Shown here piece by piece: positions 11,601 through 50,139 of a stretch of 64,000 nucleotides of DNA. Every line of letters starts with the position of its first letter. Within the stretch, counting starts at the first letter, position 1. The notes beneath the pieces are model-generated. The model worked only from the letters and a program-made list of their open reading frames with translations. It searched no databases and was not told the origin of the DNA. This DNA comes from Methanobacteriota archaeon (GTDB taxonomy: Archaea > Thermoplasmatota > Thermoplasmata > RBG-16-68-12 > JAFNFQ01): contig JAFNFQ010000032.1 in the NCBI GenBank assembly GCA_017885655.1, positions 1,258 through 65,257 of the forward strand, in the 5' to 3' direction. The position numbers and the translations under genes are program-made.

Positions 11601-11735
11601 ATGGAGGGCTACGATTCCTTCGCAGCGCCGTACTTCCTCAAACGAATGGGGCCAACAGACTCCATGCTCGGCGGCGAGGGCTACTGGATCTATGTGGGCT
11701 CAGACGCTGACTGGACGCTCTCGTTCGCGCCATGA
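8637..11735 (+). CDS. large secreted protein with FG-GAP/VCBS-like repeats and an ASPIC/UnbV (CRTAC1-like) domain. GTG start
   Basis: Repeated motifs WGDYNNDGWLDFY / WGDYDRDGFIDLY / WADYDLDGWQDLW. A later segment NQGNTNSWLQVKLNGCTSNAAAIGARI is typical of ASPIC/UnbV. Hydrophobic N-terminus. Confidence 0.75.
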   Translation: MSGVLLASLIGFAKNVSSMDVPPEVVSVSPGVDATNVSVLANISVVFNKPMNATSEKWNITPFVPLNSSWWDTSTLNLTHTVPMTPATSYVIWVTANNTAGTPLRRYYHKYTWRFTTDCGGTCVVQTSPADGDRNVDLTAAIVVKFSLPADVVTISFSIVPLVPGLTYAWAPGNTMVTLNHPSPLELCTAYTVTIGGVVPGSVPNPWTFTTACPGATFIDVAASKGFTGIDGSFYAWGDYNRDGNEDLLIDGKRLLRNNGPPNYDFTEVTGEAGIGGTSINNGVWGDYNNDGWLDFYAPGGGWSTNAGPKAPWDILWMNNGDGTFTNVTAAAGNVKDIYPSVAAGWGDYDRDGFIDLYVANYENAAMTSGYPDRLWHNDGDGTFTDVTSSARILDSGPVKPGRGVAWGDYNNDGWLDAYISNYRITANYLWKNLGNGQFVDVAPSLNATGWYQTDNLCYDYNLHATYGRQYAHTIGSAWADFDNDGDLDNFNANLAHKSVGNTSIPGLPYDMRGYITDDSRLFRNDGPPNYNFTDVREAAGITLKPVGGTTADLVDSPLAPCIHNPYKGDELFSNVMWADYDLDGWQDLWIPQVYDISYAYSFLYHNNGDGTFSDVTTAANVRVWVDGYAGAWADYNNDGFPDLITRGIYPEYKAPYTRAIRLFENQGNTNSWLQVKLNGCTSNAAAIGARILATANGMTQMRNVEAGSGSHSQMNSLVQEFGFGDYHGTADLLIRWPNNNTQAMTAVTLTQLLRVNEPGCDVPARVPYISAGVSAGTGADVVLTWDKAMGDDPWAMNVTEYAVYYGLSYDPSATSYSFLGKVPAGTTTFTHVGGGVGDTRTYYYSIQTNGTGGTIRSTAQAVKFAKQLSPGEQLLSIPVPISNYSLESVLRGVSFTHVRIYDGTMQDPWLSYARGRQFNDFDSFVPYQAFWIGVEVGLLPGYFTVAGPIIPTTTIHLRAGWNLVGYTSTLSRDVASAVAGLGGNFRAMEGYDSFAAPYFLKRMGPTDSMLGGEGYWIYVGSDADWTLSFAP

Positions 11736-19441: not shown

Positions 19442-22400
19442 TCAATTGAAATCGGTCAGCCCGGACTGGCCGATGAGCGGTCCCTTCACCGCCTCCTCGC
19501 CAGCTCCGAGCTGCTCCTTGATCTTCCTCGCGACGGCGGGTCCGATGCTCGGTATCCTCGCGATGTCCCCCGCCTCCGCCTTCTGAAGGTCCCGCAGGGT
19601 CTTGTACCCTCTGGAGAACAGCGCCCTGCCCCTCACCCGCCCGACGCCCCGCAGCTCCACCAGGGGCAGCAGCTCCTCCTTCACGCCGTACGTCTCCCGC
19701 AGCACGAGGCGGCTCACCGGTCTGACCCGCGCCTTGTTGAATATCCGCGCTAGCTCCTGCATTGAGTAGAGGAGCCACCTAGCCTGCTCCGTCATCCGCC
19801 TGATGTCACCAGGCCCGATGCTGAACCTCTTTGTGATGTCGTTCTCCGGCCTCTCGTCCATCCAGTCTTCTAGGAGCGCGGCGGTCTTGACCTCCGCCAT
19901 CATGAAGTCGTAGTCGTCCACAGGGAAAGTCAATCCCTCGAAGACTATCTTCTCGTCGACCCACTGGTAGTCCCCTCGCCTCAGGTAGAGCTTGGGCATG
20001 TCAGGCGTGGAGCAGACCGCCCATAGATGTGCGAAGTTGCTCTCCAGCTCGCTCTCGAGGTGGTCCCTCATCTTCACCGCAGACAGGGGATCGATGTAGA
20101 GGTCGGAGGTCCTCTTGCCGAAGAGCGTCGCCCTGAGCGTGTCCTTGGCGGTGATGAAGCCCTCGCGTTCCAGGAAGCTGAGCACCCCCACGACCTTGTC
20201 CCTGATGTTCTCGATGTCCTCGCAGTGCGCGAAGAATGTGGAACCTATGAAGTCGAATATCTCCCGCTCGGTCTTTGTGTGCTCGGTCGCGATGCTCGCG
20301 AGGATGTGCACTCTGAGCGCAGGTTCGGTCCCGAGCTTGGAGACTATCGCCTCCGGCTTGCTCAGGAAGTACGCGTCCGTGAGTTCCTTGATGTCCTCCT
20401 CCTTCTTGGCGATGAGGATGGCCTCTCCGAACTTGTCATATCGGGGTCTCCCAGCGCGGCCGCACATCTGCTTAATCTCGAGCACGGGGATTGGCGCGTT
20501 GCCGTAGGTCACGTCGAACCTGCTGAGGTCTCTGACGACGACACGCCGAGCAGGCAGATTGATGCCTGCCGAATTGTGCACCGAGAAGGCGAAAGAGCAG
20601 ACGTAACTCTCATCGCCCTCAACATGGAGATTGAAGACATCGCCATCATATGGAACGCGCCTAATCCTGCGAATCGGCGACCTAAATGACATGCCGACGA
20701 GGTTCTTGGTATTGTAGGTCCGATTCCCCTTTTGAATCTCGTCAGGACTCACGCCCATTATTTCAACCAGAAACCGGGCACCTTGCGTTCCTGCAATGGC
20801 GAGGAGGTACTGTGTGTTCTTCCCCATACCTCGAGGTTTGCTGGTGCGTGTCGAAGGCATGTATCCGAGCCGCCTGAGCATTCTTGACATCTGTTCGGCT
20901 AGCCTCGGAGAGACTGTCGAGAACCTGGATACTGCCCAGCGTCGAGGATCAATCGTGCCATCTCCCTCCCAAGCCCCCCTAACGAGTCCCTTGATTGCAT
21001 CGAGCGGAGCCCGAACCATGTACTCTGGGAAATGCTTCTTTGTGGCTCCTCTGCCGAACGATCTATCGAGGAACTGGGCCAGAGCTTTGGAGCATGCCCC
21101 CACAATCCTGCGATGTCTGGAATGATCCTTGACTTTCGGCACGAGATGAAACGAATCCCTCATGCAGCGGGATATGAAGTCAGTCAAGTCCTGCTCGTAG
21201 GTCGCGATGGCGAAACCAATCCCACCGTTTCGTGCAGTAAATCCTTCAGCCACATAGAGTCCGAAGAATCGAGCGTGGTCCTCGCTTAACTCGAGCAGAT
21301 GCGGGACGGGTCTGGCTGAAGGATGCGGGAAGACAGAGCCGAATTGGTTGCGACCCACGAAATTCATGTCATGAATCGGGAGGACGAGCGTCCCTCCGTC
21401 GGGGAGAAATTCGGGAACCTCGAGAGGTACTTGCACCTCATCGTCAATCTTCAATTCCTTGGCTTGGACCCACTCAGGTTCACTTCGAACAATCTTGTGC
21501 CAAACGCCATCTTTCCCATGGTGGCCAAACCTATAGCGCGTGTTCCTGAGGACCTTGTGTTCTGGGGTCATCAGGACTGGCAGCATCCCGTCGGCTTTCA
21601 CTTCCATCAAGTTCCCATCGAAATGGCGCTTGGATGTTCCAATGACCTTTCGGAATCGGCCGCGATGTGTGAGGACTTCATCGCCTTTCTTGAGATCTGA
21701 GATCTTGATTGGGCCACGTAATGTTGTGATCCGGGTATCAGGATGAAGGCAGAGAGTAGGGGTCGCAACGATGCACTTGATCTTGCCTTTCTTGAAGTTC
21801 GTCTCCACCATCCGTCTCTGGTCGTTTGTCAAGCCAGCGTTGTGGAACGCAGCTCCGCCCTCGACGCACTTCGCGAGGCGCGCGACCATCGACGTCGGCT
21901 CATCCTGCCGCTTCGATAGGTCCTCTGCCATCTCGGCAAGTTTCTCCCGCTCCTTAGGCTCGATGGCCTGCTTCAGGCGGGAGGCCAGGCTCGTTGCGAG
22001 AGCCTCCGTCGATCTCCGTGTGTTCACGAAAATCAGGCACTGCCCGCCCTCTCTGACCGTGTCCATCACCAGGGCAAGGAGCTCCTCGCCCTCTGGCGGG
22101 ACCGGTCTCGACGAGCCATCGGTGAAGTGGATCTTGTCGTTCCAGCAGATGCCTTGTTTCAAAGGGACTGGCCGCCACTCGCTCCTGAAATGCTCCGCCT
22201 CCAGCCAGTCGGCGAGCTCGTCGGAGTTCCTGATGGTTGCTGAGAGAGCTATGATCTGCGCGCGCGGGTTGACCTGCCTCATCTTGGCCAGGGTCACCTC
22301 GAGGGTTGGCCCCCGGTCGCCGTCGTTGATGAGATGCACCTCGTCTGCGACGACCGTGGTCAGCCTCTTCAGCCAACTCGTCTTGTGCCGGAGGAGAGAG

Positions 22401-22798
22401 TCCGCTTTCTCCGATGTCGCGATGATGATGTCGTATCGTTCCAGAGTCGGGTCGGGAGTGTCGTAGTCCCCGACGGCGAGGCCCGTCTTGATCCCGAGCG
22501 AGTCGAACTCCTTCAGGTCATCATACTTCTCTGACGCGAGGGCTCTGAGAGGGACGATGTAGAGCGCCTTGCCTCCCGCCATGACAGACTTGACGGCGGC
22601 TAGGTAGGCGATTAGCGACTTGCCTGCTGCGGTGGGAATGGCCAGTACTATATTCTTTCCCGCCAGAGCGGCACCAATAGACTCGGCCTGCGGCGGGTAC
22701 AGCTCCTCTATTCCCTGCTTGAAGAGAATCGAGACAATCCTTTCGTCGAGACCGAGGTCCGAGACCTTCATCTGGCGAGGGATTATGGCGGGTGTCAA
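19442..22798 (-). CDS. hel308: Hel308/Hjm Ski2-type DNA helicase, interrupted by an in-frame intein
   Basis: N-terminal ELYPPQAESIGAALAGKNIVLAIPTAAGKS (motif I) and DEVHLI (motif II). C-terminal winged-helix, ratchet and HhH domains. Helicase motif VI ATPTL|SAGINLPARRV is split by a ~393-aa insertion. Confidence 0.85.
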   Translation of the reverse strand: MTPAIIPRQMKVSDLGLDERIVSILFKQGIEELYPPQAESIGAALAGKNIVLAIPTAAGKSLIAYLAAVKSVMAGGKALYIVPLRALASEKYDDLKEFDSLGIKTGLAVGDYDTPDPTLERYDIIIATSEKADSLLRHKTSWLKRLTTVVADEVHLINDGDRGPTLEVTLAKMRQVNPRAQIIALSATIRNSDELADWLEAEHFRSEWRPVPLKQGICWNDKIHFTDGSSRPVPPEGEELLALVMDTVREGGQCLIFVNTRRSTEALATSLASRLKQAIEPKEREKLAEMAEDLSKRQDEPTSMVARLAKCVEGGAAFHNAGLTNDQRRMVETNFKKGKIKCIVATPTLCLHPDTRITTLRGPIKISDLKKGDEVLTHRGRFRKVIGTSKRHFDGNLMEVKADGMLPVLMTPEHKVLRNTRYRFGHHGKDGVWHKIVRSEPEWVQAKELKIDDEVQVPLEVPEFLPDGGTLVLPIHDMNFVGRNQFGSVFPHPSARPVPHLLELSEDHARFFGLYVAEGFTARNGGIGFAIATYEQDLTDFISRCMRDSFHLVPKVKDHSRHRRIVGACSKALAQFLDRSFGRGATKKHFPEYMVRAPLDAIKGLVRGAWEGDGTIDPRRWAVSRFSTVSPRLAEQMSRMLRRLGYMPSTRTSKPRGMGKNTQYLLAIAGTQGARFLVEIMGVSPDEIQKGNRTYNTKNLVGMSFRSPIRRIRRVPYDGDVFNLHVEGDESYVCSFAFSVHNSAGINLPARRVVVRDLSRFDVTYGNAPIPVLEIKQMCGRAGRPRYDKFGEAILIAKKEEDIKELTDAYFLSKPEAIVSKLGTEPALRVHILASIATEHTKTEREIFDFIGSTFFAHCEDIENIRDKVVGVLSFLEREGFITAKDTLRATLFGKRTSDLYIDPLSAVKMRDHLESELESNFAHLWAVCSTPDMPKLYLRRGDYQWVDEKIVFEGLTFPVDDYDFMMAEVKTAALLEDWMDERPENDITKRFSIGPGDIRRMTEQARWLLYSMQELARIFNKARVRPVSRLVLRETYGVKEELLPLVELRGVGRVRGRALFSRGYKTLRDLQKAEAGDIARIPSIGPAVARKIKEQLGAGEEAVKGPLIGQSGLTDFN
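20573..21751 (-). mobile_element. intein (Hint domain + LAGLIDADG homing endonuclease) inserted in hel308 motif VI
   Basis: Begins with Cys right after ATPTL and ends in VHN followed by Ser, the +1 extein residue. LAGLIDADG-like blocks FFGLYVAEGF and GLVRGAWEGDGTI. Confidence 0.75.
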
Positions 22799-22988
22799 TA
22801 AAGGTTCTCGGTGGCGGGTGTGAAAGTGACATGCGCGGGATGGAATGTTTCCCCGTGCGAATCAAGGACCCTTACATTGAATGCGACCTCCTCTGCACAC
22901 GGACCGGTCTCCTCCAAGCCGGATTGGACGATTTCCATGTTGGGGTGCCTCGCATCGTGGCAGACTTGTCTTGCGCAACATATGGCGG

Positions 22989-23329
22989 GACTTCCGCTGA
23001 TCACAGCGGAGTCTCCGAAGAACACAACGGAGTTGCCGCTGAATGCAGCGGACTCTGCGCTGAACGGGGCGCATCTTCCGCTGATCACAGCGCACATTGC
23101 GCTGAACAGGGCGGAACTTGCGCTGATACATCGGACTTCACGCTGGTTTCGGCGGGGTTTCCGCTGAACGCGGCGGAGTCTCCGCTGATTGCAGCGCACT
23201 TTCCGCGGAACAGGGCGGAACTTGCGCTGAACGCAGCGGACCTCGCGCTGAATTCAGGGGGTTTCCGCTGAACACAGCGCACTTTCCGCTGGACCGGGCG
23301 GGCTTTCCGCTGGGTGAGGCGGACTTCTC
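22989..23329. repeat. tandem array of ~16 degenerate 21-bp units (consensus ~CCGCTGAACGCAGCGGACTTC). Each unit carries a short inverted repeat (CGCTG-N4-6-CAGCG) able to form a hairpin
   Basis: CCGCTGA/GCGCTGA recurs at 22994, 23015, 23036, 23057, 23078, 23099, 23120, 23141, 23161, 23182, 23203, 23224, 23245, 23266, 23287 and 23308. The period is exactly 21 nt, with one 20-nt unit. Confidence 0.85.
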
Positions 23330-23558
23330 GACGAATACCGAGAATGCGTGTATCGAATCGCCGAAATCATCCCCATCATTGGCGTTCACCCTGACTCGGG
23401 TCCTCAAAATCCTCCCGCCCAAGCTCTGCGGGCCTCACCATAGCTCCTTCCATGTCCGGAGGGACGCAGTTCCACGCTCGCGGGAGACGAATCCATATGC
23501 GCGTTCTTTTGCGTGCAAAGCGAACGGGTCTTCGGTGGGTGTCAGAGCGTTAGCTGAG

Positions 23559-26500
23559 CTACGTTGGCGGTGGCTGTGGCCCTTCGTCCTCTTCCTCGAT
23601 CGGCTCTTGGTGCTTCCTTCGCCGGAGGACCAGGAAAAACACGATCGCCAGGACGACACCAATCAACAAGACGACACCGAATACGACTGCGATGGTGCCG
23701 AAATCCAAGCCAGCCGGGACGACCTGGAACTTGTGGGTCACGGTCGGCGCATTTGGCGGGCTCTTGGCGACATTGCCATAGATATCCACCGCCTCGATGA
23801 AGTACTCCACCGTCCCGGGATTCTGGCCGACATTGTAGCTGAAAATGAACTGACCGCCAGGGGCGGGAGTATGTTCGATTGCCGGGTTGAAGTACGATGC
23901 ACCGATCGGCTTGACGTACAACTTGACCACCGCAACGCCGGAGTCGTCGGTGGCCGTGCCTGTTATGGCCACGGTCTCCCCGGTCTTCATGTCCCCTGGT
24001 GGTGTATGTGTGATTATCGGCAATATCATGTCGGACGCGATGAAGTCCATCCAAGAGTACATCTCCGGGCGTGCTCCTCCGAGCAGATCGGTGAATCTCA
24101 AAGTCCCCGTCGTCCTGACGACGGTGCTGAGAGGCAATGTGGCGTTCACCTTCGCTCCGATGACTATCTTCTCGAACGCCAGGGAAGACATGAAACTGAG
24201 ATTCCACCACCGCTGTTGCCCGATGGTCTGATTTGGCGCGGGATCCGAGGAGACGAATTCGAGACCGGCAGGGAACACGTTGCTGACGTTGACCGCCTTG
24301 GCGGCGACCTGCCCGATGTTCCTCACCCAGATACTGCAGCTGACATTCCCGCCGGGTTCCGCCCTGTTCTGGTCGGTCTCCATGTAGAACGCCATAGACG
24401 GGCCGTAACCGTTGATTGCTTCTATCGGCGTCGTGGCGGCGTAGATGTCCGAACCGCCCGGGCGCCTCCAGTCCTGCCAGATCGCGGTGATATAACCGAA
24501 CGGATTGAGCACGATGCGCGGCATGAAATGATTGTTCCCCGGCTCGTTCACGGGGAACGGGTTGAACAGAGTCCGCCATGACGGCCCGTCCGCTCTCTGC
24601 AACACCTCGTCGGCCGGCTGAAGGTTGCCTCCGGCCCCCGTAATCGCTGAGGTGCGTATGATCGGCTCCCCCCTCATGTAATGCCCGGTCATGTTCACAT
24701 CGACGAATACGATTTTATCGAGCGGGGAAAACGTCGCGAGAGATGAGCCAAGCGCGGTCGCCGAAGTGCCGTTGTAGACGATGGTGTCCGCGTTATCATA
24801 TACATCGACGACTCCCTTGGTGACATTCAGGGCCACTCTGTCGAACGATACGTTGCCTGCGCCGTTGTTCAGGAAGGAGACGTTGAGGTCGCGGACATCC
24901 GGGACCGTCGTCACCCCCTGCGCGTACAGGTCGACGCTCGCGTTCGTCCATGCATCCCCCGTGTCCGACGGGACGAACCAGGAGTTGTTCGCGCCGCGCT
25001 CGAGTGACCAGTTCACGGTGCCTGTTCCTGTGTATGTGCTGTTCGCCCTAAATGTGATCTCCAGGCGGACGCTGGAAATCACATCCCCTGTCTTCAATCC
25101 AATCTTGGCTGGGTCGAAGGGCGACGTCGTGGCACCGTCTGTGTCGAACCCTTCAAGAGCGAGAGTCTTGCTAGGTCCGACACTCATCGAGAAAGTGTCG
25201 AAAAAGTAGAGGAGAGATATCTGCGCAACAGTGTATCCCGTGGTGTCCCACGGCGCGATGAGATTCGGCTTCACTCCCGGGTACGTGTCGCGCGACCCGC
25301 TCATGACTATGTCCTCGTCCCTGTCCCAGGAGTTGTTCAAGTTCGCATCGAAGTACCTCAGGTCGTCTCCTGTCAGGTCCTGCTGGAGGTTCGCCCTCCC
25401 TGGATTCACGACGCGGTCGGGGGAACCGTCGAGAATGCCTGGATCGAGGACATCGTTCCCGTTGTCGAGTATCGCAGCTTCTCCCGCATCCCAGACCCCG
25501 TTGTAGCTCGACACGTCGTCGATGAAATAGTTCGCGCCCGATGTCGCGATGTTGGCGGGAAGAAAGGTCGTCCCGCCATCCGTGGACTTTGCGACATACA
25601 CATTATGGTTCGTGCTCCGGTCGTCCACCCAAGCGATGTAGATGAACTGCCCCGTCGGGTCGACCTGTACCCAGGGCTGCTGGTGGGTAGTCCTTCTAAG
25701 CGACATCGATATAGGCGAGGAGTCGTTCACCGGCAGATTCGTGCTGAAGTGAACCCCATCATCCGAGTGCGCGTAGAAGATGTCCGTGCATTCGTTCGGC
25801 TCGAACCGTTCGTCCTTCCAGGCGACGTGCAGCCGCCCGTAGGCATCTATCGCGATCGAGGGCGAGCTCTGCACCTTGCCCGTGATGACATCGTTCACCG
25901 GCGTGTTCGGTCCGAAAGTTCTCCCGCCATCGGTCGAGTTGGCGATGTAGACATCGTCGTCTTCAACTTGCATGCCGCTGGGGCGGACGATCATGCCGCT
26001 GCGCCCGTCCCGCCATGTGACGTACACCTTGCCATGAGTGTCTACGGCGACTCTCTGCTCGCTCCTCGTGTTCACCGTGCTCGTTGACACGAGACTGTGA
26101 TTCGTCCACGTCTCCCCGCCATCGTAAGAAGCAACGAGCTTGATGTCATCGAAGTTCTCGCTGTAGGCAACATAGATTGTGCCGTTCGGCCCGACGGCCA
26201 TGGATGGTGCGTAGGCGGATATCCCCTCCATTGGCGTGGTGGCTATCCGCTTCGCGAAATGCGGCAGTCCGCTCGGCATGGGTATCAATGTGAACATTAT
26301 CACGTCGCCCCGCATCAAAGCGCTTTCCTGCCAGACGATGTAGACTGTCTCGTTCCAGTACGCGATGTCGGGGGACTGCTGGATGGCGTCGTTCATGGAA
26401 GGGACCGAGACCTGGACATGGCCCGTGAACGTCCCGCCGCTCCGGGGTGCATGAGCGAACATTATCCGCCAATATCCGGAGCTCTTGTCCTGCCAGGCGG

Positions 26501-26669
26501 CGTAGACCGTCCCGTCCCATCCGACCGCCAAGGTCGGGACGTTCCGTTCAGGAGTGGAGTCGATGTTGACTCGGACATTCGGTCCGAATTTCTCGCCCCT
26601 GGATGAAGGCGCGAGCTGAACCGCGAACCCGACTACTAGCACCCCGACGACCAACGCTGCGAGTCTCAT
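23559..26669 (-). CDS. cell-surface protein with BNR/Asp-box (sialidase-like beta-propeller) repeats, a DUF11-like domain and a C-terminal TM anchor
   Basis: Signal peptide MRLAALVVGVLVVGFAVQLA. Asp-box motifs YDGGETWTN, STDGGRTFGP and STDGGTTFLP. C-terminal IAVVFGVVLLIGVVLAIVFFLVL followed by RRRK. Confidence 0.7.
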   Translation of the reverse strand: MRLAALVVGVLVVGFAVQLAPSSRGEKFGPNVRVNIDSTPERNVPTLAVGWDGTVYAAWQDKSSGYWRIMFAHAPRSGGTFTGHVQVSVPSMNDAIQQSPDIAYWNETVYIVWQESALMRGDVIMFTLIPMPSGLPHFAKRIATTPMEGISAYAPSMAVGPNGTIYVAYSENFDDIKLVASYDGGETWTNHSLVSTSTVNTRSEQRVAVDTHGKVYVTWRDGRSGMIVRPSGMQVEDDDVYIANSTDGGRTFGPNTPVNDVITGKVQSSPSIAIDAYGRLHVAWKDERFEPNECTDIFYAHSDDGVHFSTNLPVNDSSPISMSLRRTTHQQPWVQVDPTGQFIYIAWVDDRSTNHNVYVAKSTDGGTTFLPANIATSGANYFIDDVSSYNGVWDAGEAAILDNGNDVLDPGILDGSPDRVVNPGRANLQQDLTGDDLRYFDANLNNSWDRDEDIVMSGSRDTYPGVKPNLIAPWDTTGYTVAQISLLYFFDTFSMSVGPSKTLALEGFDTDGATTSPFDPAKIGLKTGDVISSVRLEITFRANSTYTGTGTVNWSLERGANNSWFVPSDTGDAWTNASVDLYAQGVTTVPDVRDLNVSFLNNGAGNVSFDRVALNVTKGVVDVYDNADTIVYNGTSATALGSSLATFSPLDKIVFVDVNMTGHYMRGEPIIRTSAITGAGGNLQPADEVLQRADGPSWRTLFNPFPVNEPGNNHFMPRIVLNPFGYITAIWQDWRRPGGSDIYAATTPIEAINGYGPSMAFYMETDQNRAEPGGNVSCSIWVRNIGQVAAKAVNVSNVFPAGLEFVSSDPAPNQTIGQQRWWNLSFMSSLAFEKIVIGAKVNATLPLSTVVRTTGTLRFTDLLGGARPEMYSWMDFIASDMILPIITHTPPGDMKTGETVAITGTATDDSGVAVVKLYVKPIGASYFNPAIEHTPAPGGQFIFSYNVGQNPGTVEYFIEAVDIYGNVAKSPPNAPTVTHKFQVVPAGLDFGTIAVVFGVVLLIGVVLAIVFFLVLRRRKHQEPIEEEDEGPQPPPT

Positions 26670-26828: not shown

Positions 26829-29800
26829 TTGAAGCGCGTTAGCACGTCGGCAGTCGGGCTAGTCCTTCTGATCGTACAGCTTGCCGTCCTTGTGTCGATT
26901 CCGCGGGGCGTCTCGGCATACACTTTTCACACTCCGATATACATCGACGGCAACGGCGGGTTCAACGCGAGCAACGGCGTCACCGGGGGAAGCGGACTTC
27001 CGGGTGACCCGTATGTGATCGAGGGTTGGGACATCAACTCCACGGGGACTGGTGGAATGGGCATTGAGAATACCGATGCCCACTTCGTTATCCGCAACGT
27101 GTACGTGCATTCTGACCCAATCTCACCGCAAGGCATCGCATTCAGAAACGTCAAGAACGGCCGCATAGAAGGGTCGACAATCTCAAACCACTATGTTGGA
27201 ATATTAATCGATAGGTTCACGCAGAATGTGAGCATCATCGGCAACCAGATATCCTCCAACTGGGAGGGATTGTATTCGGAATCAAACGTGACTGTCGAGG
27301 GCAACACCTTCAACGACAACCGCCGTGGCCTCTTCCTCTACTCCGGCGCAACCGTAAGGAACAACGACTTCGTTTCGAACACACATATAGGGATTGACCT
27401 CTCCTGGAGCGCCTTTGGCGGCACAATATCGGAGAACAGGATAGAAGGGAACGGCAACGGTGGCTGGGTAGGAGGCATAGTCTTCGAGAACAACTCTGCC
27501 CATTGGACGGTGTCCCACAACCAAATCAGGTACAACAACGCCAGCGGTATATTCATGGTCTGGGGCCCCAGCAACATCACGGTTGAGTACAACGACATAT
27601 CCTACAACGTTGGGGAAGGCGTCCACTTCGAAGACGCCCGCGATGTCACGGTGGCTCACAACAACTTCATCGGAAACGCTGTGCCCCAGGCATACGACGC
27701 TAACGGAGCTGTGAACCGTTGGGACAGCGGCTGCTCCGGTGGCGGGAACTACTGGTCCGACTACACCGGATCTGACAACATCGACTGCCGCAGCGGTTCC
27801 GCAGGGAGCGACGGAATGGGAGACTCGCCGTATGTCATAGACGCTGATTCGCAGGACAACTACCCGTTCATGCACCCGTTGATTCTGGATAACTGGACCT
27901 ACACGCCTCATCCACCGATACTCATCACAAGCAATGCTGGGTTCAACGCGAGCAACGGCGTCACGGGGGGAAGCGGACTTCCGGGCGACCCGTACATCAT
28001 CGAGGGGTGGGAGATCGACGCGTCGGCGGGCGTCGGCATCAAGATCTGGTATACAGACGCGCGATTCACCATCCGCAACGTGTACGTGCACTCCAATCCT
28101 CAGGTTTTCACTGGCGCCATCAATCTTCGTAGCGCGCAGCATGGACTTGTCGAGAACTCGCTCGTCACGGGGAGCAATAGTGGCCTCTTCATCGACTCCT
28201 GTTATGATATCGCCATGGCCGGCAACGTGATCTCCGGCAACAGTGTCGGCATAGACTCCTTCTGGTCCGATTACGTCATCATGACAGGCAACAACGTGAC
28301 GTCAACGGCGGGAATCGGCATATACACCGGTTCGACGAATACGACCGTCGAGGGCAACACGTTCTCGGGCAACGGCCGAGGCCTCTATGTCGACGGAGGC
28401 GCCACTGTGAGGAACAACCGATTCCTGTCGAACTGGGGAACCGGGATAAATCTCGGACACGCATCATACGGCGGTCTCATCTCGGGGAACGCAATCAACG
28501 GGAACGGGTTGGGAAGCGGAGCGGGAATCTACATCGGAAACACGTCCGCGCAGTGGACGATATCCAACAACCGGATAACGTCAAACAACGTAAGCGGGAT
28601 ATCAGTGGTCAGCCCCGCTAACAACATCACGATCGACCACAATGAAATCAGCTACAACTTGGGCTACGGGATCTCTCTTGCTGCGAACGACATTCTGGTG
28701 CACAGCAACAACTTCAGAGGCAATGGGATTCAGGCATATGACATCGGGGCCAACCGCTGGGACGACGGATGTGCTTATGGCGGTAACTACTGGTCGGATC
28801 ACTCCGGGGTGGACGCCGTAGACTGCAGCACGGGAGGAGCAGGCAGCGACGGATTCGTCGATGCGCCCTATGTCATAGACGCCAACTCGCAGGACAACTA
28901 TCCGCTGATGGGACCGTTGTCGTTCAACAACACGCCTCCCGATGTCACGGTTGTCATCCCGGACGGCGGGGAGGACTGGACCGGGAACACTGTGCACGAT
29001 ATCGAGTGGACGATGTATGACGACTATGATGTCAACCTGACCGTCTGGATCTACTGGTCGACCAATGCGTCGTGGAACCCGATCCCCAGTGCTCAGGGCA
29101 TCGCTAGGCAGGTCGGCTACAATACGTTCTCGTGGACATTGCCCGGCATCGACTCGACCTCTGTCAGGGTCAAGGTTGAGGCAGAGGACTCGAACGGGAC
29201 CTGGGGCAGCGACACCAGCGATGACTTCTTCACTATTGACTCCACACTACCGACCGTTCTGAGCACCGATCCACCGGACGGGGCGACCGACGTCCTCATC
29301 CTGGTTCCATTGACGATTAACATCACATTCTCCGAGAGCATGAACCCTGGGTCCTCCGCAGGATTCTCGATATCACCTTACGTTCCCGGGAGCCTCAGCT
29401 GGCCAGCCCCGAACGTCCTCCGCTTCTACCCCTATCAGACACTCAGCCAGTGCACCATGTACACCGTGACCCAAGGCGCGAACGCGACGCTGGACGGTTC
29501 CGACCCGGGCAACTCGCTCGACGGGAACGGCAACGGTCAGGAGGAAGGCTCCCCGACAGATGACTACTCCTTCAGCTTCACGACACAGTGCTTCGGAAAC
29601 GAGCCGACGGCCACAGTCACGAGCCCCGTTGGCGGGGAGGACTGGACCGGAGGCTACAGCAAGCAGATCTCCTGGGATGTCTCGGACCCTCAAGACCCGC
29701 CGTCTCTCCTCAACGTCAGCATCTATTACTCGACCGATGGCGGGCAGACATGGATTCTGATCGTGACCGGGCTCTCCGGCAATGACACCCCATACTCATG

Positions 29801-32285
29801 GCAAGTGCCTTTCGTGAACACGACTGCCGCGAAGGTGAAGGTTTGCGCGACGGACACTTCGAACCTGACGGGCTGCGGCATCAGTGGAGCCTTCACGATT
29901 GATTCAACATCGCCTCAAGTCACCTCAACGGTGCCGCCGGACGGTGCAGTCGATGTCCCTCTGAACGCGACTCTGGTGGTGACTTTCGATGAATGGATGG
30001 ACAACTCCTCGGGCAGCGTCATGCTCATCCCGTCCATCACCGGAAGCATCGTCTGGCCGAATCCCACGACCATGTATTTCATCCCAGGCAATCTGTGGAC
30101 CGGGTGCACGGTCATCACAGTCGGGCTGATGGGGTTCAAAGACGACAGCGACCCTGGCAATACCATGGGCGGGACCTACACGTTTTCCTTCACGACCGTC
30201 TGCCCCGGACCGCCGCATGTGGCGCTGATAAGACCCGTCGGCGGCGAGTACTGGCGTGGCGGCTCCTCGCAGTTGATCAACTGGACCGCCTTCGACTCGG
30301 AGACTTCGTTCAAGAATCTCACCTTCATAGTGAATTACTCGAGCGGCGTCTCCTCCGGGACTATTGTCGGTCCAGTCAAGATGCTGACCGCTTACCTCTG
30401 GACCGTCCCGTCCATCGACGCCGCCGATGTGAGAATCAACGTCACCGTGATCGACCTCGACTCGATGAGCGGCTTCGCGGAGAGCGGTGCATTTACAATC
30501 GACTCGACCCCGCCATCGTTGTCAAGCCATATCCCGACAGGCTGGAATGTTCCGGTCGACTCCAGCGTCAGCGTCACATTTTCGGAGCCCGTGGTGGCTA
30601 TAATGAACAGAACGGACCTCGCAATCGCATTGCGCGATGGGGGGACAGGTCAGTGGGTTCCTGCATCACGGGCTCCATCAGGCTTCACGGGCTTCATGCA
30701 GCTTGTCCCCGGCCAACCTCTGAAGCAGTGCACAGCATACGAGGCGTTCGTGAATGACACCTTCATAGACAGGGCTTTGTGGACGCTGACCAATCCCGCC
30801 TCGTGGACATTCCACACGGTGTGCCCGCCCTCGCTATCCTTCCAGACCGCCGTGGCCGGGAAGGACTGGACCGGTGGCTCCAGTCACAGCCTCGCCTGGA
30901 CCATGGGCGACGAGATCGATACTCAGTTGAAAGTCTGGATCAACTACTCTAGAAACGACGGAGTAGACGGCTACCCGTATGCGGCATACTCAGGCGCGAG
31001 GCCGACGGGCGCGAACGCTTACGCATGGACGCTGCCGCTTATCGACACGGAGAAAGCGCGCATCAAGATCACCGTCGCGGACAGTTCCGGCATGGTTGCG
31101 TCCGCAATCACCGCCAACTTCACGATAGACTCGACGCCGCCATCGATCCTGAGCAGTGTGCCAAGTGGCGGTTCGCATGGCATCAAGATCACTGACGTCA
31201 TCCAGGTTGTATTCACGGAGGCCATCGTAAGGACATCCGCTGAGCAGTCGTTCTCCCTGTCTCCGAATCCAGGAGGTTTGGGGTTCTCTTGGCAGCGCAC
31301 CACTTTGGGCAAGGACATTATGATCGTCGACCACAAGCCGCTGAGCCAGAAAACGGACTACACGATGACGTTCTCCACGACGATGCGCGACGATAGCGAT
31401 CCCGGCAACCATCCCGCCAGCGCCCTCACGATACAATTCAGCACCAAGCCCCCGCCGCCGGTGAACCCACCGGTGGCAATGGCGGTCGGGCAAAACCAGA
31501 TAGCTGTCGGAGAGGAGACTACATTCGACGGCAGCCAATCGACAGGCAACATCACCAAGTACGTCTGGACAATCACCGACAACCAGGACAACATCGTCGA
31601 GGTGCTCGAGGGGAAGGTGGTGAACTACACCTTCAGCCAGAACGGGCGGTACAGGGTGACGCTCAGGGTGATAGACGAACCCAGCGGCGTCTGGGACGAG
31701 GACTACATCGAGATCAACGTCACCAGCAGCGTGAATGCGGGCGCGATCATCCTGCTGAGCTCGGCCCTCATCATCGCAGCCGCGGTAGGCGGCACCGAGG
31801 TCGGCCGCGTCGCACTCTTTATGCTCCTGGCGGTCCCTGTGTACAAGCGGAAGATGAAAGGGAAGGACGACGTCGAGACTCGCGGCATGGTCATAGGGTA
31901 CGTCAGAGTCCATCCTGGAGACACCTTCACTGACATCAAGACCAACCTCGGGCTGCACAATGGCTCTGCAACCTGGCACCTGATGAAGCTCGAGAAGGAT
32001 GGTATCATCAAGTCACAGATCCGGGGTTCAAGGAGGCTCTACTTCCCGGCGAACATGCCGCTGCCTTTCGAGGACGGCGGGGACCTTCACGAGATCGAGA
32101 AGCGGATGCTACACATGGTGAAGTCCGACCCCGGGATGACCGTGAAGGTGCTGGCGGAGGAACTCGGCGTATCAAGTCAGCTCGCGCTCTACCACATGAG
32201 GAAGCTGTCACAAAAGGGGCTGGTTTCCCTTGAGAGACGAGGACTGCGTCTGAAGGCCTATCCCCCGTCAAAGCGCGCGACCTAG
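26829..32285 (+). CDS. giant (1818 aa) surface protein. Signal peptide, two NosD-like right-handed beta-helix modules, ~8 Ig-like domains and a PKD domain, then one TM helix and two C-terminal cytoplasmic winged-helix (HTH) domains. TTG start
   Basis: Beta-helix repeats (NVYVHSD..., NxxxxN ladders). Repeated GGEDWTG Ig-like units. PKD-like VWTITDNQDNIVEV...YRVTLRVIDE. TM helix AGAIILLSSALIIAAAVGG. Tail RGMVIGYVRVHPGDTFTDIKTNLGLHNGSATWHLMKLEKDGIIKS ... VKVLAEELGVSSQLALYHMRKLSQKGLVSLERRG. Confidence 0.8.
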   Translation: MKRVSTSAVGLVLLIVQLAVLVSIPRGVSAYTFHTPIYIDGNGGFNASNGVTGGSGLPGDPYVIEGWDINSTGTGGMGIENTDAHFVIRNVYVHSDPISPQGIAFRNVKNGRIEGSTISNHYVGILIDRFTQNVSIIGNQISSNWEGLYSESNVTVEGNTFNDNRRGLFLYSGATVRNNDFVSNTHIGIDLSWSAFGGTISENRIEGNGNGGWVGGIVFENNSAHWTVSHNQIRYNNASGIFMVWGPSNITVEYNDISYNVGEGVHFEDARDVTVAHNNFIGNAVPQAYDANGAVNRWDSGCSGGGNYWSDYTGSDNIDCRSGSAGSDGMGDSPYVIDADSQDNYPFMHPLILDNWTYTPHPPILITSNAGFNASNGVTGGSGLPGDPYIIEGWEIDASAGVGIKIWYTDARFTIRNVYVHSNPQVFTGAINLRSAQHGLVENSLVTGSNSGLFIDSCYDIAMAGNVISGNSVGIDSFWSDYVIMTGNNVTSTAGIGIYTGSTNTTVEGNTFSGNGRGLYVDGGATVRNNRFLSNWGTGINLGHASYGGLISGNAINGNGLGSGAGIYIGNTSAQWTISNNRITSNNVSGISVVSPANNITIDHNEISYNLGYGISLAANDILVHSNNFRGNGIQAYDIGANRWDDGCAYGGNYWSDHSGVDAVDCSTGGAGSDGFVDAPYVIDANSQDNYPLMGPLSFNNTPPDVTVVIPDGGEDWTGNTVHDIEWTMYDDYDVNLTVWIYWSTNASWNPIPSAQGIARQVGYNTFSWTLPGIDSTSVRVKVEAEDSNGTWGSDTSDDFFTIDSTLPTVLSTDPPDGATDVLILVPLTINITFSESMNPGSSAGFSISPYVPGSLSWPAPNVLRFYPYQTLSQCTMYTVTQGANATLDGSDPGNSLDGNGNGQEEGSPTDDYSFSFTTQCFGNEPTATVTSPVGGEDWTGGYSKQISWDVSDPQDPPSLLNVSIYYSTDGGQTWILIVTGLSGNDTPYSWQVPFVNTTAAKVKVCATDTSNLTGCGISGAFTIDSTSPQVTSTVPPDGAVDVPLNATLVVTFDEWMDNSSGSVMLIPSITGSIVWPNPTTMYFIPGNLWTGCTVITVGLMGFKDDSDPGNTMGGTYTFSFTTVCPGPPHVALIRPVGGEYWRGGSSQLINWTAFDSETSFKNLTFIVNYSSGVSSGTIVGPVKMLTAYLWTVPSIDAADVRINVTVIDLDSMSGFAESGAFTIDSTPPSLSSHIPTGWNVPVDSSVSVTFSEPVVAIMNRTDLAIALRDGGTGQWVPASRAPSGFTGFMQLVPGQPLKQCTAYEAFVNDTFIDRALWTLTNPASWTFHTVCPPSLSFQTAVAGKDWTGGSSHSLAWTMGDEIDTQLKVWINYSRNDGVDGYPYAAYSGARPTGANAYAWTLPLIDTEKARIKITVADSSGMVASAITANFTIDSTPPSILSSVPSGGSHGIKITDVIQVVFTEAIVRTSAEQSFSLSPNPGGLGFSWQRTTLGKDIMIVDHKPLSQKTDYTMTFSTTMRDDSDPGNHPASALTIQFSTKPPPPVNPPVAMAVGQNQIAVGEETTFDGSQSTGNITKYVWTITDNQDNIVEVLEGKVVNYTFSQNGRYRVTLRVIDEPSGVWDEDYIEINVTSSVNAGAIILLSSALIIAAAVGGTEVGRVALFMLLAVPVYKRKMKGKDDVETRGMVIGYVRVHPGDTFTDIKTNLGLHNGSATWHLMKLEKDGIIKSQIRGSRRLYFPANMPLPFEDGGDLHEIEKRMLHMVKSDPGMTVKVLAEELGVSSQLALYHMRKLSQKGLVSLERRGLRLKAYPPSKRAT

Positions 32286-32362: not shown

Positions 32363-35300
32363 TTGAGAAAAGCGGGAGCGCTCGAGATGGTCAGCATCGT
32401 CCTGGCGGTGCAACTAGTGCTTCTGCTCCCTTCTCCGCGTGTCATGGGATGGATACCGGAGCCGTACGAGCTCTACGGAACCGCACATGATGAGGCCGGG
32501 GTCGTTCTTCTCGATGGTGAGCCGATCAGGACGTTCATCGATGGAGTCGAATACTCTAACAAGACCTCTGTGTACAGCCGCCCGGGATACTTCGACGGAT
32601 ATTTCGACGTCGACACCTACGGCAACTACAGAAGCAACCGCACGGTCCCCGGCACGCCGTGGATAAAGGAGGGCGGCGACGACGGGGAGCCGATCATGTA
32701 CGTTTGGGGGGACATGAGCAACAACACTCCGATCGGAGGGCCCACGCAGCCGTGGAAGACCGGCGTGGTTTTCAAGGAGAACCACACGTGGCAGACGGGG
32801 CTCCCGCCTGAGGCCGGAGACCTGAACGCCGCGCTTGGCGCGCTGCAGCCGCCGCTCGTCAAGATATACAGCATCGTCACGAACAGCACCCTCAATCCTT
32901 ACACGGATTTCGTCCAGCTCTGCAATCCAACGCCATACCCAGCGGAGGTTTCGACACTATATATCCAGAAGGACGTTCCGGGGAATATCAATGGGCCGAT
33001 TGTCCAGATACCGTCCGGTACGATCAAACCATACGGGCGCTACTACGTCAACACGGGGATGCTGAACTACTTTGTCGAGACTGGAGACGCCGTGAAACTG
33101 GTATGGAAGAACAACGCCTCCAACCCTCAGGCGCCCTTTGGCGGGAAGGACGTGATTCTGGACAGGATCGAGTTCAACAGGACCGGCGGGACCGGGACCC
33201 TTAACTGGGAGCCGGGCAACACGATTATGAACAACGAACCCGCGCCGGATAGGGGCTTCCAGATCAACAGATCCGAAACCTGCCGCGACACGAATTCGAT
33301 GCAGAAGGACTTCTTTGTCAATTTCGAACTTATCGATGATGTTCGACCCTTTCCACCAGATCCGGTCTGCATCCAAGGCCTGTGCAACTGGGACCTCGGC
33401 AATCCGACGCTGGATCACATCACCGTCCTGAGCAACTTCAGGATAAATTGGACGCACCAGGATCCTTACCTGAATCCGCAGATGGCGGCATCTGTCTATA
33501 TATCGACCATGCCGAATGGCAGCCTCAAGATATGGACGGGTTCCATCGGATCCGCTCAGGAACTGACCTACAGTGGCCTGCCGCTGCTCAAATGCGCTGA
33601 TTATTGGCTTGGGGTGAGCACGAAAAATGCTGGTCCGCTTTATGGTGATATCACCGAGCTGAAATTCCACACGAACTGTCCCCCGGCGTGGCCACCGAAG
33701 GTGTGGCCGCTCATGGGTGCCATCGTTCCTGCAGGGACGCAGATGGTGTGGTGGTCAGAGGTCGTCGACAGCGACCCCGGGGATACCGTCAATTACACCT
33801 GGGTGGTGGACGACTCTCCAGTCCTCTCGCTGCCATATGTGAGCACCGGCACGACGACGAGCAACCACTCAAATGCTTTCATGACGAATCCGACAATGAC
33901 GTACTACTGGTGTGTCGATGCGTCGGACGGGTGGTCATACACGAATTGCACGGGCTCTTGGTTCTTCAAGACTTCGGGGAACCCAGTGGTATCTGTTTCG
34001 GTTCCTGTGGGAATTGAGGACTGGACCGGCGGTTCGGATCATTATATTGTCTACTCGCTCTCCGATGATCTCGACTCGCAACTTGCAGTCGAGGTGAACT
34101 ATTCACTCGATGGCGGCAACGACGGATATCCATACCAGGTCTTCGCAGGCCTCAAAGATGTAGGAACGATCAACCATCAGTGGACCCTGCCGGTTGTCGA
34201 TTCGAAGGCGGTACGCCTTAGAATCACCGCAACTGACAGCACGAATCTCTCCGCTGTGGCATACAGCGTTTCCTTCGAGATCGACTCGACCGCGCCAATC
34301 CTTCTGACGACCGTACCCGCAAATAACTCCTCAGGTGTGACGATCACGGATGACGTCCAAGTCGTCTTCGACGAGCCCGTCAACAAGACATCGGCTGAGC
34401 AGGCTTTCTCCATCAGTCCTGACCCGGGAGACATCCAATTCGATTGGACCGTGACCGGCCAAGGCAAAGACGTTCTCGTCGTGAGTCATAAGCCGTTCAG
34501 ATCGGAAACGGAGTATGTCGTCGCGTTCGGCCCGGTGCTGCGCGACATCAGCGACCCGGGAAACCATCCCTCCATCTCCCTCACGTTCAACTTCACGACC
34601 AAACCTCCGGTGGTAATCCAGCCGCCTGTCGCGAAAGCGGTGGGGAAGAATCAGGTCCAGGTAGGTGAGGAAGTCACTTTCTACGGCAATGAATCGATGG
34701 GCAACATCACGAGATACGTCTGGACCATCACGGACAACCAGAATCACATCGTCGAGGTGCTCACCGGAGTGATTGTCAACTACACGTTCAATCAACAGGG
34801 GCGGTACTCTGTCACCCTGACCGTTTATGACGACACGACCGGGTTGAGCGATGGCGATACGATGGAGATCGTCGTAACAAGCAATCCGAAGGAGGGCCTC
34901 GACCTCACGTGGCTCATCGTGCTCATTGCGATTCTCTTCATGTGCGTTTTCATCGGCGGGACCGAGATCGGCCGCGTCGCGCTGCTGACACTTTTGGTCG
35001 CCCCCATGCACGGCAGAAGGACGAAGGACAAGGATGAGGCGGAGACTCGGGGGATGATCCGCGGCTTCATCCTGGGCAATCCCGGGGAGTGCTATACTTC
35101 CATCAGGCAGAACCTCGGGCTGAAAAACGGAACGCTGTCCTGGCACCTGATGAAGCTCGAGAAGGAGGGCATCATTAAGTCCAGGGTGCAGGGCACGAGG
35201 AGGAGGTACTACCACAAGGGGGCGGCCATTCCCGCCGAGAACGGCGGCGAGTTGCGCGAAATCGAGCAGCGGCTGCTGAAGGTCGTCGAGGAGGATGTGG

Positions 35301-35455
35301 GCAGGTCTGTGAAAGAGCTGGCTGAAGAACTGGGGGTCTCCAGCCAGCTCGCTCTATATCACATCAGGCGACTATCGCAGAAGGGGTTCGTCATTCTCGA
35401 GAGGAAGGGATTGCGGCTGCGGGTCTACATGCCCTCGGAGAATCGCAACACATAG
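32363..35455 (+). CDS. paralogous 1030-aa surface protein. Extracellular N-terminal region, Ig-like and PKD domains, then TM helix and tandem cytoplasmic wHTH domains. The start is TTG 32363 or ATG 32387
   Basis: The C-terminal ~230 aa (PKD-TM-wHTH-wHTH) are ~70% identical to the preceding protein. TM helix WLIVLIAILFMCVFIGG. Tail RGFILGNPGECYTSIRQNLGLKNGTLSWHLMKLEKEGIIKS ... VKELAEELGVSSQLALYHIRRLSQKGFVILERKG. Confidence 0.8.
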   Translation: MRKAGALEMVSIVLAVQLVLLLPSPRVMGWIPEPYELYGTAHDEAGVVLLDGEPIRTFIDGVEYSNKTSVYSRPGYFDGYFDVDTYGNYRSNRTVPGTPWIKEGGDDGEPIMYVWGDMSNNTPIGGPTQPWKTGVVFKENHTWQTGLPPEAGDLNAALGALQPPLVKIYSIVTNSTLNPYTDFVQLCNPTPYPAEVSTLYIQKDVPGNINGPIVQIPSGTIKPYGRYYVNTGMLNYFVETGDAVKLVWKNNASNPQAPFGGKDVILDRIEFNRTGGTGTLNWEPGNTIMNNEPAPDRGFQINRSETCRDTNSMQKDFFVNFELIDDVRPFPPDPVCIQGLCNWDLGNPTLDHITVLSNFRINWTHQDPYLNPQMAASVYISTMPNGSLKIWTGSIGSAQELTYSGLPLLKCADYWLGVSTKNAGPLYGDITELKFHTNCPPAWPPKVWPLMGAIVPAGTQMVWWSEVVDSDPGDTVNYTWVVDDSPVLSLPYVSTGTTTSNHSNAFMTNPTMTYYWCVDASDGWSYTNCTGSWFFKTSGNPVVSVSVPVGIEDWTGGSDHYIVYSLSDDLDSQLAVEVNYSLDGGNDGYPYQVFAGLKDVGTINHQWTLPVVDSKAVRLRITATDSTNLSAVAYSVSFEIDSTAPILLTTVPANNSSGVTITDDVQVVFDEPVNKTSAEQAFSISPDPGDIQFDWTVTGQGKDVLVVSHKPFRSETEYVVAFGPVLRDISDPGNHPSISLTFNFTTKPPVVIQPPVAKAVGKNQVQVGEEVTFYGNESMGNITRYVWTITDNQNHIVEVLTGVIVNYTFNQQGRYSVTLTVYDDTTGLSDGDTMEIVVTSNPKEGLDLTWLIVLIAILFMCVFIGGTEIGRVALLTLLVAPMHGRRTKDKDEAETRGMIRGFILGNPGECYTSIRQNLGLKNGTLSWHLMKLEKEGIIKSRVQGTRRRYYHKGAAIPAENGGELREIEQRLLKVVEEDVGRSVKELAEELGVSSQLALYHIRRLSQKGFVILERKGLRLRVYMPSENRNT

Positions 35456-50000: not shown

Positions 50001-50139
50001 ATCCGAGTCGAGTGCGGCAGCAAAACTGGCGACCTAATGGACAAGGGCCTCGAACGTCGCAGAATTCGAACACCAAGTTCCTTACGTGTCCTCCTCACAG
50101 GCGGGCATCTGTCTATTCATTCCGCATCCGTTGAAGCAG

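Follow-up and report, generated by a model that had tools for sequence, protein, structure and literature searches.

Between the gene of a BNR/CLIPPER-domain surface protein and the gene of the helicase Hel308, an uncultivated Thermoplasmata archaeon carries an array of 21-bp tandem units that is probably a lineage-specific, non-coding minisatellite (VNTR-like), neutral or nearly neutral and with at most a weak constraint on the core of its unit. The array has the features by which minisatellites are recognised, as its units follow each other in tandem without spacers, it is non-coding, its copy number varies by whole units, and concerted evolution has taken place with formation of higher-order repeats. 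It can be said to behave like a minisatellite because it originated recently at this junction, because insertions and deletions comprise whole units, because blocks of units have been duplicated and unit variants replaced, because substitutions outside the core of the unit occur at a near-neutral rate, and because the hairpins have been lost in sister arrays.

The array and its locus

In the window, which is the whole 64,000-nt stretch of DNA that was analysed, the array lies where the initial annotation had placed it, between the BNR gene and hel308, both of which are encoded on the minus strand (Table 1). It is co-oriented with the BNR gene and lies downstream of its stop codon, and the further genes of the neighbourhood encode CMD, CGI-121, KorAB and surface proteins. 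The distance to hel308 had to be corrected: the 190-530 bp given before rests on a TTG at 22798, whereas the start codon that is conserved across relatives is the ATG at 22771, and the array is found 218-558 nt upstream of it. The promoter module of hel308 contains a TATA-like TTTATT (22797-22802) between two copies of ACACCCGCCA (22786-22795 and 22812-22821). This module is near-invariant in the array-bearing clade, with single substitutions in the loci L082 and L095, and it is still recognisable in the outgroups. That the array units are copies of the promoter motif ACACCCGCCA was considered and rejected, as no unit comes within one mismatch of it.

Table 1. Features at the BNR-hel308 junction, in coordinates of the window.
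Feature	Position	Strand	Remarks
hel308 helicase gene, 1109 aa	19442..22771	-	Hint/LAGLIDADG intein at ~20567-21755
hel308 promoter module GTCACTTTCACACCCGCCACCGAGAACCTTTATTGACACCCGCCATAATCCCTCGCCAG	22772..22830	-	59 nt; conserved in relatives
Unique spacer, array to hel308 promoter module	22831..22967	-	absent from L001-type loci
Promoter-proximal edge unit CGCCATATGTTGCGCAAGACA	22968..22988	-	sister (L001-type) unit family
21-bp tandem array, ~18 units, two of them 20 bp	22968..23343	.	TRF and units read in register
Higher-order repeat within the array	23037..23310	.	104-105-bp period (5 units), ~2.6 copies, TRF
Unique non-repetitive spacer, BNR stop to array	23344..23558	-	only the last ~25 nt have an L001-type counterpart
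BNR/CLIPPER-domain surface protein gene	23559..26669	-	C-terminal transmembrane helix; stop 215 nt from array

TRF detects a period of 21 at 22988-23312, with 15.6 copies, 65% matches and a score of 167. When the units are read in register, 16 clear units are found at 22989-23322, with degenerate edge units on either side (22968-22988 and 23323-23343). The 16 units initially reported at 22989-23329 are thus real, but the array extends further and comprises about 18 units when its degenerate edges are included. Also the 21-nt period was correctly recognised, except that there are two 20-nt units (near 23115-23134 and 23261-23280) where only one had been noticed, and that the last CCGCTG is at 23307 and not at 23308. 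The units abut head-to-tail and there are no cas domains among the neighbouring genes, which agrees with the earlier view that this is not a CRISPR array.

The periodic signal is strong. At a lag of 21 nt, the self-identity of the array is 0.59 in comparison to a maximum of 0.37 in shuffled sequences, and the phased skeleton CGC-N8-GCG-N7-CGC-N8-GCG occurs 10 times in the array, where 0.06 occurrences are expected, and not once elsewhere in the window. The full palindrome motif, with up to two mismatches permitted, is found 11 times in the array and at chance level in the rest of the window. There is no second copy of the array in the window, and further copies, as would be expected for a dispersal of the REP/BIME type, were found neither in the window nor in about 0.8 Mb of related loci. 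The independent Logan assembly L081 is identical to the window across 9.3 kb, array included, and the array is therefore not an assembly artefact.

On the hel308-sense (minus) strand, the consensus of the unit is CGCTGTGTTCAGCGGAAAGTC. Positions 1-3 (CGC), 10-14 (CAGCG) and 16-17 (AA) are nearly fixed and the rest is variable. The dyad is centred between positions 7 and 8, the CGC and GCG half-sites are about 11 bp apart from centre to centre, and the left arms tend to alternate between a CGCTG type and a CGCCC type. Across the array, 12 dyad centres are counted versus 6.1 +/- 2.5 in shuffles. An inverted repeat had been ascribed to each unit, which is overstated, as a good one (5 or more of the 7 pairs around the centre of the unit being of the Watson-Crick type) is present in only 8 of the 18 units. 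The promoter-proximal edge unit, which by its sequence belongs to the sister family, is a likely relic of a shared ancestral unit.

Distribution and turnover among relatives

Orthologous loci were obtained by three routes, namely by scanning the species genomes of GTDB with the hel308 N-extein, by a scan of metagenomes with a 24-mer from the conserved promoter, and by collecting contigs that encode homologues of the neighbouring CMD protein. With the hel308 N-extein as query, a first protein search gave no relative above 74% identity, and it was the CMD-protein search that yielded the close relatives. Eight loci form a tight clade (L081, which represents the window, L082, L083, L001, L084, L086, L088 and L095), in which the hel308 N-exteins are 97-98% identical at the amino-acid level and fourfold sites have diverged by 0.15-0.30. 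Each of the eight carries its 21-bp array at this BNR-hel308 junction, with homologous flanks, and the arrays comprise 17-20 units (L083 is partial, its contig beginning inside the array). A collapsed array was not found among the recovered members of the clade.

The two syntenic outgroups L099 and L098 (81% and 76% amino-acid identity) keep the gene order BNR-hel308-CMD-CGI121-Kor and have no array between BNR and hel308. In both, the BNR stop and the hel308 ATG are separated by only 66 nt, and the promoter module begins a few bases past the stop. It follows that the array is a recent insertion or expansion into a spacer that once was minimal, and hel308 is evidently expressed without any array in these sister lineages. 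In L089/L090 (86% amino-acid identity), where the upstream gene is a different one and the spacer consists of about 700 nt of non-repetitive sequence, there is no tandem repeat upstream of hel308 either, and 79 further hel308 loci with at most 70% amino-acid identity show no periodic signal upstream. The initial annotation had itself stated that absence from close relatives or variability among them would speak against its functional reading if no gene content correlated with it, and this is largely what is seen, as the array is absent from the syntenic outgroups, variable in unit sequence and copy number within the clade, and not conserved in its hairpin potential.

The turnover of the arrays is rapid. 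The flanking genes of the window and of L001 are 88-92% identical at the DNA level, whereas the intergenic regions do not align by blastn. In L001, L084/L086 and L095, the units begin with CGCWACATGTT, followed by a variable remainder (consensus CGCTACATGTTGCGCAAACCC), and the promoter-proximal units of L001-type arrays form a sub-family, CGCTGAGTGTTGCG, which the window-type unit resembles. Common to all array types are the position, the 21-bp period, the number of about 17-20 units, the CGC at the unit start, the dyad centre and the AA at positions 16-17, but not the unit sequence, the half of the unit that is constrained, the local hairpin stability, or the distances to the promoter and to the BNR stop. 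The conserved core is type-specific: units of the window type have CGC..CAGCG.AA, and those of the other arrays have CGCwACATGTT. Measured from the array, the promoter and the BNR stop lie at distances that differ by about 115-190 nt between the types: in L001-type loci, the array directly adjoins the hel308 promoter, with no counterpart of the spacer at 22831-22967, and the spacer from the BNR stop to the array measures only about 25-35 nt. Such a variable position argues against a precise role in promoter architecture. A 47-aa ORF that was called in L081 within the promoter-side spacer is not conserved.

Copy number changes by whole units, as the arrays of L001 and L084 differ by a 63-bp indel that corresponds to three units, and one perfect 21-bp unit of L084 is missing from L086 and L088. 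The higher-order periods, 104 bp in the window and in L001 (five units) and 125 bp in L095 (six units), reveal block duplications. When orthologous units of L001 and L086 are compared, non-core positions differ by 19.4%, which is close to the 18.6% at the fourfold sites of hel308, and core positions differ by 11.8% (p = 0.06), i.e. the core evolves at about 0.6 of the neutral rate. A much sharper contrast between the core and the rest in L001 versus L095 (p = 4.5e-10) was discounted, since the alignment may have paired units that are not true orthologues. The variation within the unit is non-uniform, with a chi-square p of about 0.006 in each of three arrays in a test that assumes independent units, which they are not. 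The pairs 5-10 (A-T versus G-C) and 4-11 (A-T versus T-A) have been changed on both sides between the types, and G.T intermediates at these pairs occur in the proximal units of L001. In every array type, the strongest Fourier component of the AT/GC composition is at 10.5 bp.

The arrays of the window and of L082 differ by only 4.5% and have no indel, as compared to 25.6% at fourfold sites. Purifying selection was rejected as the cause, because L082 is a recombinant mosaic: its BNR gene is L001-like up to about position 23680 of the window, the spacer is window-like, and hel308 is L001-like again, with the left boundary of the exchanged tract inside the BNR coding region. L083 and L082 share an identical array segment, and this on a hel308 background that has diverged by 24% at fourfold sites. 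The low divergence is thus due to a recent exchange of the array-bearing segment and reveals no demonstrable constraint.

Alternative readings of the array

As the period of 21 is divisible by three and long frames stay open across several of the arrays, a protein with 7-residue repeats could be encoded on either strand, but this is extremely improbable. The earlier statement that TGA codons break every frame is inaccurate, as a plus-strand ORF (22792-23271, 159 aa) stays open through about 283 nt of the array, an antisense frame is fully open across the arrays of both L001 and L084, and in L088 a gene of 165 aa was called over the array. That the array is non-coding nevertheless holds, now on a comparative basis: none of the frames has an excess of synonymous change, non-synonymous changes prevail in every one of them, and the ORFs are not conserved. 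In the 159-aa antisense ORF, the 26 nucleotide changes that separate L082 from the window lead to 18 amino-acid changes, and in L001 its translation is unrelated except for the initial 13 residues, which simply reflect the conserved promoter read in antisense. In addition, the 20-nt units shift the register of the repeat, and the translation of the array ORF has no match in Pfam.

An RNA function also is improbable, though less so than a coding one. The array could be part of the 3' UTR of the BNR mRNA or a separate RNA, with GC-rich hairpins that would stabilise the transcript or stall or terminate transcription, as in the case of REP/BIME elements. Its location downstream of the BNR gene in the same orientation, with no T5 terminator tract in between, is compatible with this, and so is the folding of the whole array of the window, which relative to shuffles has z values of -7.7 to -9.3 on the hel308-sense strand and of -10.5 on the antisense strand. 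However, the predicted minimum-free-energy folds consist mostly of long-range pairings between units, as any array of quasi-palindromes would give. When the pairing span is restricted to at most 25 nt, z values of -5.3 to -7.5 are reached in window-type arrays, while they are about 0 on both strands of the homologous L001/L084-type arrays, and the proposed multi-hairpin RNA is therefore unsupported. On the sense strand, G.T mismatches outnumber A.C mismatches in L001-type units (15:3) and in L095 units (19:6), as would suit a transcript, but there is no such wobble bias in the window type (11:9). Nor are stems spared by the substitutions that distinguish the window from L082, as 7 of 17 fall into them, with 8.1 expected (a manual tally from the alignment). 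A known family of structured RNAs was likewise dismissed, as the hairpin energy is not conserved and Rfam gave no match to the array at the gathering threshold or even at E <= 1.

For a chromosomal replication origin with a cluster of mini-ORB-like initiator sites, one could refer to the origins of Methanothermobacter, which contain many tandem 13-bp mini-ORBs (PMC1904270), and to the ORB core consensus GTTCCAGTGGAAA of Methanomassiliicoccales and other archaea (TTCC...GAA; PMC4153887), which the minus-strand unit GTTCAGCGGAAA superficially resembles. Such an origin is nevertheless very improbable, as the mini-ORB occurs within three mismatches in one unit only, with 23 such sites in the whole window versus 23.1 expected, and as the invariant TTCC motif is missing from window-type units. 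No orc1/cdc6 gene is present in the 64 kb, no Orc1/Cdc6 or AAA+ initiator domains were detected among the scanned ORFs of the window or the called neighbours, the array has a GC content of 62% and no AT-rich unwinding element, and the outgroups have the same gene order without the array. A mobile element, such as a MITE with an internal minisatellite, has at best an equally small chance: the region 22780-23560 contains no inverted repeats of at least 14 bp and hence no candidate terminal inverted repeats, IMG/VR contains no counterpart apart from one chance match of two units inside a coding region, and no match to the array exists among the plasmids of PLSDB. Also a Rep or partition gene, which would be expected with iterons or a centromere-like site, is not among the genes that neighbour the array.

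The least improbable of these alternatives, although unlikely as well, is a platform of repeated sites at which double-stranded DNA would be bound or wrapped. Such a platform would modulate how much transcription runs on from the BNR gene, or how active the hel308 promoter is. Either a dimeric (winged-)helix-turn-helix protein might bind cooperatively to the CGC-N8-GCG dyads on one helical face, or a chromatin protein might wrap the DNA, following its AT/GC alternation every 10.5 bp. The period of 21 bp and the AT/GC periodicity are retained in all array types, half-sites are spaced by about one helical turn, each unit has a conserved core besides its variable remainder, the core evolves at about 0.6 of the neutral rate (p = 0.06), the dyad centre is kept with double changes at two pairs, and all members of the clade maintain 17-20 units. 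On the other hand, the core differs between genomes that are only about 8-12% apart, and a sequence-specific binder would need a switch of specificity over this distance, which makes a role that depends on geometry more plausible than a classical operator array. Good palindromes are formed by just 5-8 of 17-18 units, there are no dispersed sites in the window, among the genes called within about 6-9 kb there is no dedicated soluble DNA-binding one, the types differ in the offset of the array from the promoter, and the syntenic outgroups run hel308 from a spacer of 66 nt. The cooperative binding of a dimeric protein that had been proposed initially is not supported, given the absence of the array from syntenic outgroups and the variable unit sequence among close relatives.

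A selected architectural DNA element, in which geometry would matter and not the exact sequence, is more doubtful still. The relevant geometry would be that of 21-bp units with CGC/GCG dyads one helical turn apart and an AT/GC alternation of 10.5 bp over about 360 bp, and as only this geometry would count, nothing would hinder the replacement of one unit sequence by another. The array would nucleate a nucleoprotein complex, wrapped or filamentous, by which the promoter of hel308 would be insulated against transcription that reads through from the upstream surface-protein gene. A chromatin protein would be the candidate binder or, more speculatively, the tandem cytoplasmic winged-helix tails, at the C-termini, of giant membrane proteins that are encoded 3.5 kb away, at 26829-32285 and 32363-35455. 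If the array indeed binds or wraps a protein, it would represent a rare case, for archaea, of an architectural repeat with a freely drifting sequence, but nothing in the present data requires this. The minisatellite reading leaves room for weak selection, for example by protein binding or wrapping, because 17-20 units have been kept, the variation within the unit is non-uniform, and the dyad centre and the 10.5-bp periodicity have been retained. The same features can, however, also stem from a palindromic ancestor in combination with templated correction between the arms of the palindrome.

Origin of the minisatellite and comparison with known repeats

For the minisatellite, the data show the anatomy of the array, how it is distributed and how it turns over, that it is non-coding and that no structure is conserved, and from them we infer both the mutational mechanism and the lack of function. 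The array would have arisen in a recent ancestor of one tight Thermoplasmata clade, within the short stretch that separated the BNR stop from the hel308 promoter, and a quasi-palindromic founder unit of about 21 bp was presumably amplified there by replication slippage or unequal recombination. Later evolution would have proceeded by point mutation, by gain and loss of whole units, by duplication of blocks of 5-6 units and by the spread of variant units, i.e. by concerted evolution, and homologous recombination seems to carry the array-bearing segment from strain to strain. Hairpin potential and same-face geometry would then be properties of the unit variant that has spread in the genome of the window and not conserved features. 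The palindromic character of the array would go back to the founding unit, and templated correction between the arms may have strengthened it. The array is probably dispensable for hel308 expression in general, and any function is likely weak and independent of the exact sequence, such as that of a spacer or of bendable DNA upstream of the promoter.

The locus is a clean and well-bounded case of minisatellite birth and rapid turnover in an archaeal genome, as the ancestral 66-nt spacer is visible in syntenic outgroups and several "alleles" of the array are available from close relatives, the recombinant L082 included. The array is useful as a strain-typing marker for this Thermoplasmata lineage, and it calls for caution in annotation, as gene callers place ORFs on it.

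Several known systems resemble the array in part. Like archaeal mini-ORB clusters (PMC1904270, PMC4153887), it is made up of several short repeats that are partly dyad-symmetric, and there is a superficial likeness in GTTC..GGAAA. In contrast to them, it fails the consensus test, lacks orc1/cdc6 and an AT-rich unwinding element, and is absent from syntenic relatives. Bacterial REPs are dispersed in hundreds of copies, usually singly or in alternating orientation. With REP/BIME elements the array shares GC-rich imperfect palindromes that lie downstream of a gene and can form hairpins in the transcript, but it is a single locus of direct tandem units, of which 8 of 18 are good palindromes, and its hairpin stability is not conserved in sister arrays. 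Centromere-like arrays of plasmids, such as sopC of F (12 x 43 bp), parC of R1 (10 x 11 bp) and parC of pSK41 (20-bp repeats), and iteron arrays, such as oriV of RK2, also have many abutting repeats, each with dyad symmetry, and a period of a nearly integral number of helical turns that would put bound dimers on one face. Unlike these, the array is chromosomal, lies between core genes with no adjacent gene for partition or replication initiation, and has a unit sequence that is not conserved between close relatives.

The likeness is closest to prokaryotic minisatellites, of which the intergenic MIRU-VNTR loci of mycobacteria are an example. Like them, the array is composed of head-to-tail units of tens of bp and lies in an intergenic region between co-oriented genes, close strains differ in copy number by whole units, there are higher-order repeats, the units evolve in concert, its distribution is restricted to a lineage, and it has no demonstrated function. 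It differs from them in that its unit derives from a 14-16-bp palindrome with a 10.5-bp alternation of AT and GC, and in that it occupies one locus in the sequence examined, with no sign of a dispersed family. Minisatellites are already known, if sparsely, in prokaryotes, and in a survey of prokaryotic satellites most archaea were found to have very few (PMC6749651). The host of the present array is an uncultivated Thermoplasmata archaeon.

Conservation of the hel308 promoter

In the array clade, i.e. the relatives that share the 21-bp array between hel308 and the BNR-protein gene, fourfold-site divergence amounts to 15-30%, and against this background the hel308 promoter module is near-invariant, with only one substitution each in the orthologous loci L082 and L095. 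The module contains two exact copies of ACACCCGCCA that lie 26 nt apart, one on either side of the TATA-like TTTATT, and there are no further exact copies elsewhere in the 64-kb window. The paired copies look like an operator pair for a putative regulator. Gene callers and ORF lists place 'genes' of 47-165 aa on the spacer and the array, here as well as in the relatives L088 and L001, but these ORFs have no conservation among relatives and no coding signature, and it is likely that they are annotation artefacts in public records.

Features considered in this part (window coordinates unless a locus is named)
Feature	Position	Strand	Remarks
hel308 promoter module	22772-22830	minus	
ACACCCGCCA, two exact copies	22786-22795; 22812-22821	minus	in promoter module
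Intein (Hint + LAGLIDADG)	20567-21755	minus	~396 aa; inside hel308
ORF call	22795-22938	minus	
ORF call	22792-23271	plus	
ORF call	L088:3-500		
ORF call	L001:5564-5977		
Giant surface protein	26829-32285	plus	1818 aa
Giant surface protein	32363-35455	plus	1030 aa; adjoins 1818-aa protein gene
Tandem duplication	50427-50473		TRF; 21 bp x 2.2; inside long ORF 50086-50682
Tandem duplication	9476-9522		TRF; 24 bp x 2.0; inside long ORF 8637-11735

Recombination around hel308

When L082:1-2160 was compared with window 21752-23900 and with L001, it turned out to consist of a window-type segment of ~0.9 kb that is set in an L001-like background and comprises the array and the spacer together with the final ~100 nt of the BNR gene. 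L082 is a recombinant mosaic, with a chimeric metagenome assembly as a less likely alternative. The array segment is common to L083 and L082, and the hel308 genes of these two are 24% diverged at fourfold sites. Presence of the intein in hel308 varies between close relatives: the window and its independent assembly L081, L083, L089/L090 and L099 carry it, and L001, L082, L086, L088, L095 and L098 lack it. Intein homing could have contributed to the mosaic recombination around hel308.

Neighbouring surface proteins and composition of the arrays

Both giant surface proteins, the larger of which contains NosD/beta-helix repeats, have a transmembrane helix near the C-terminus. Beyond this helix, each has a cytoplasmic tail that harbours a pair of winged-helix DNA-binding domains, HTH_HVO_0163_N and HTH_24, so that the architecture is one of membrane-tethered DNA binding.

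The two other short tandem duplications that were detected in the window have no sequence relation to the 21-bp array. When the arrays of the window, L001, L086 and L095 were compared for AT/GC periodicity, the composition signal at the second harmonic, 10.5 bp, by far exceeded that at 21 bp in every array type (8.5 versus 0.33 in the window array). This 10.5-bp signal would match the pattern of anisotropically bendable DNA.
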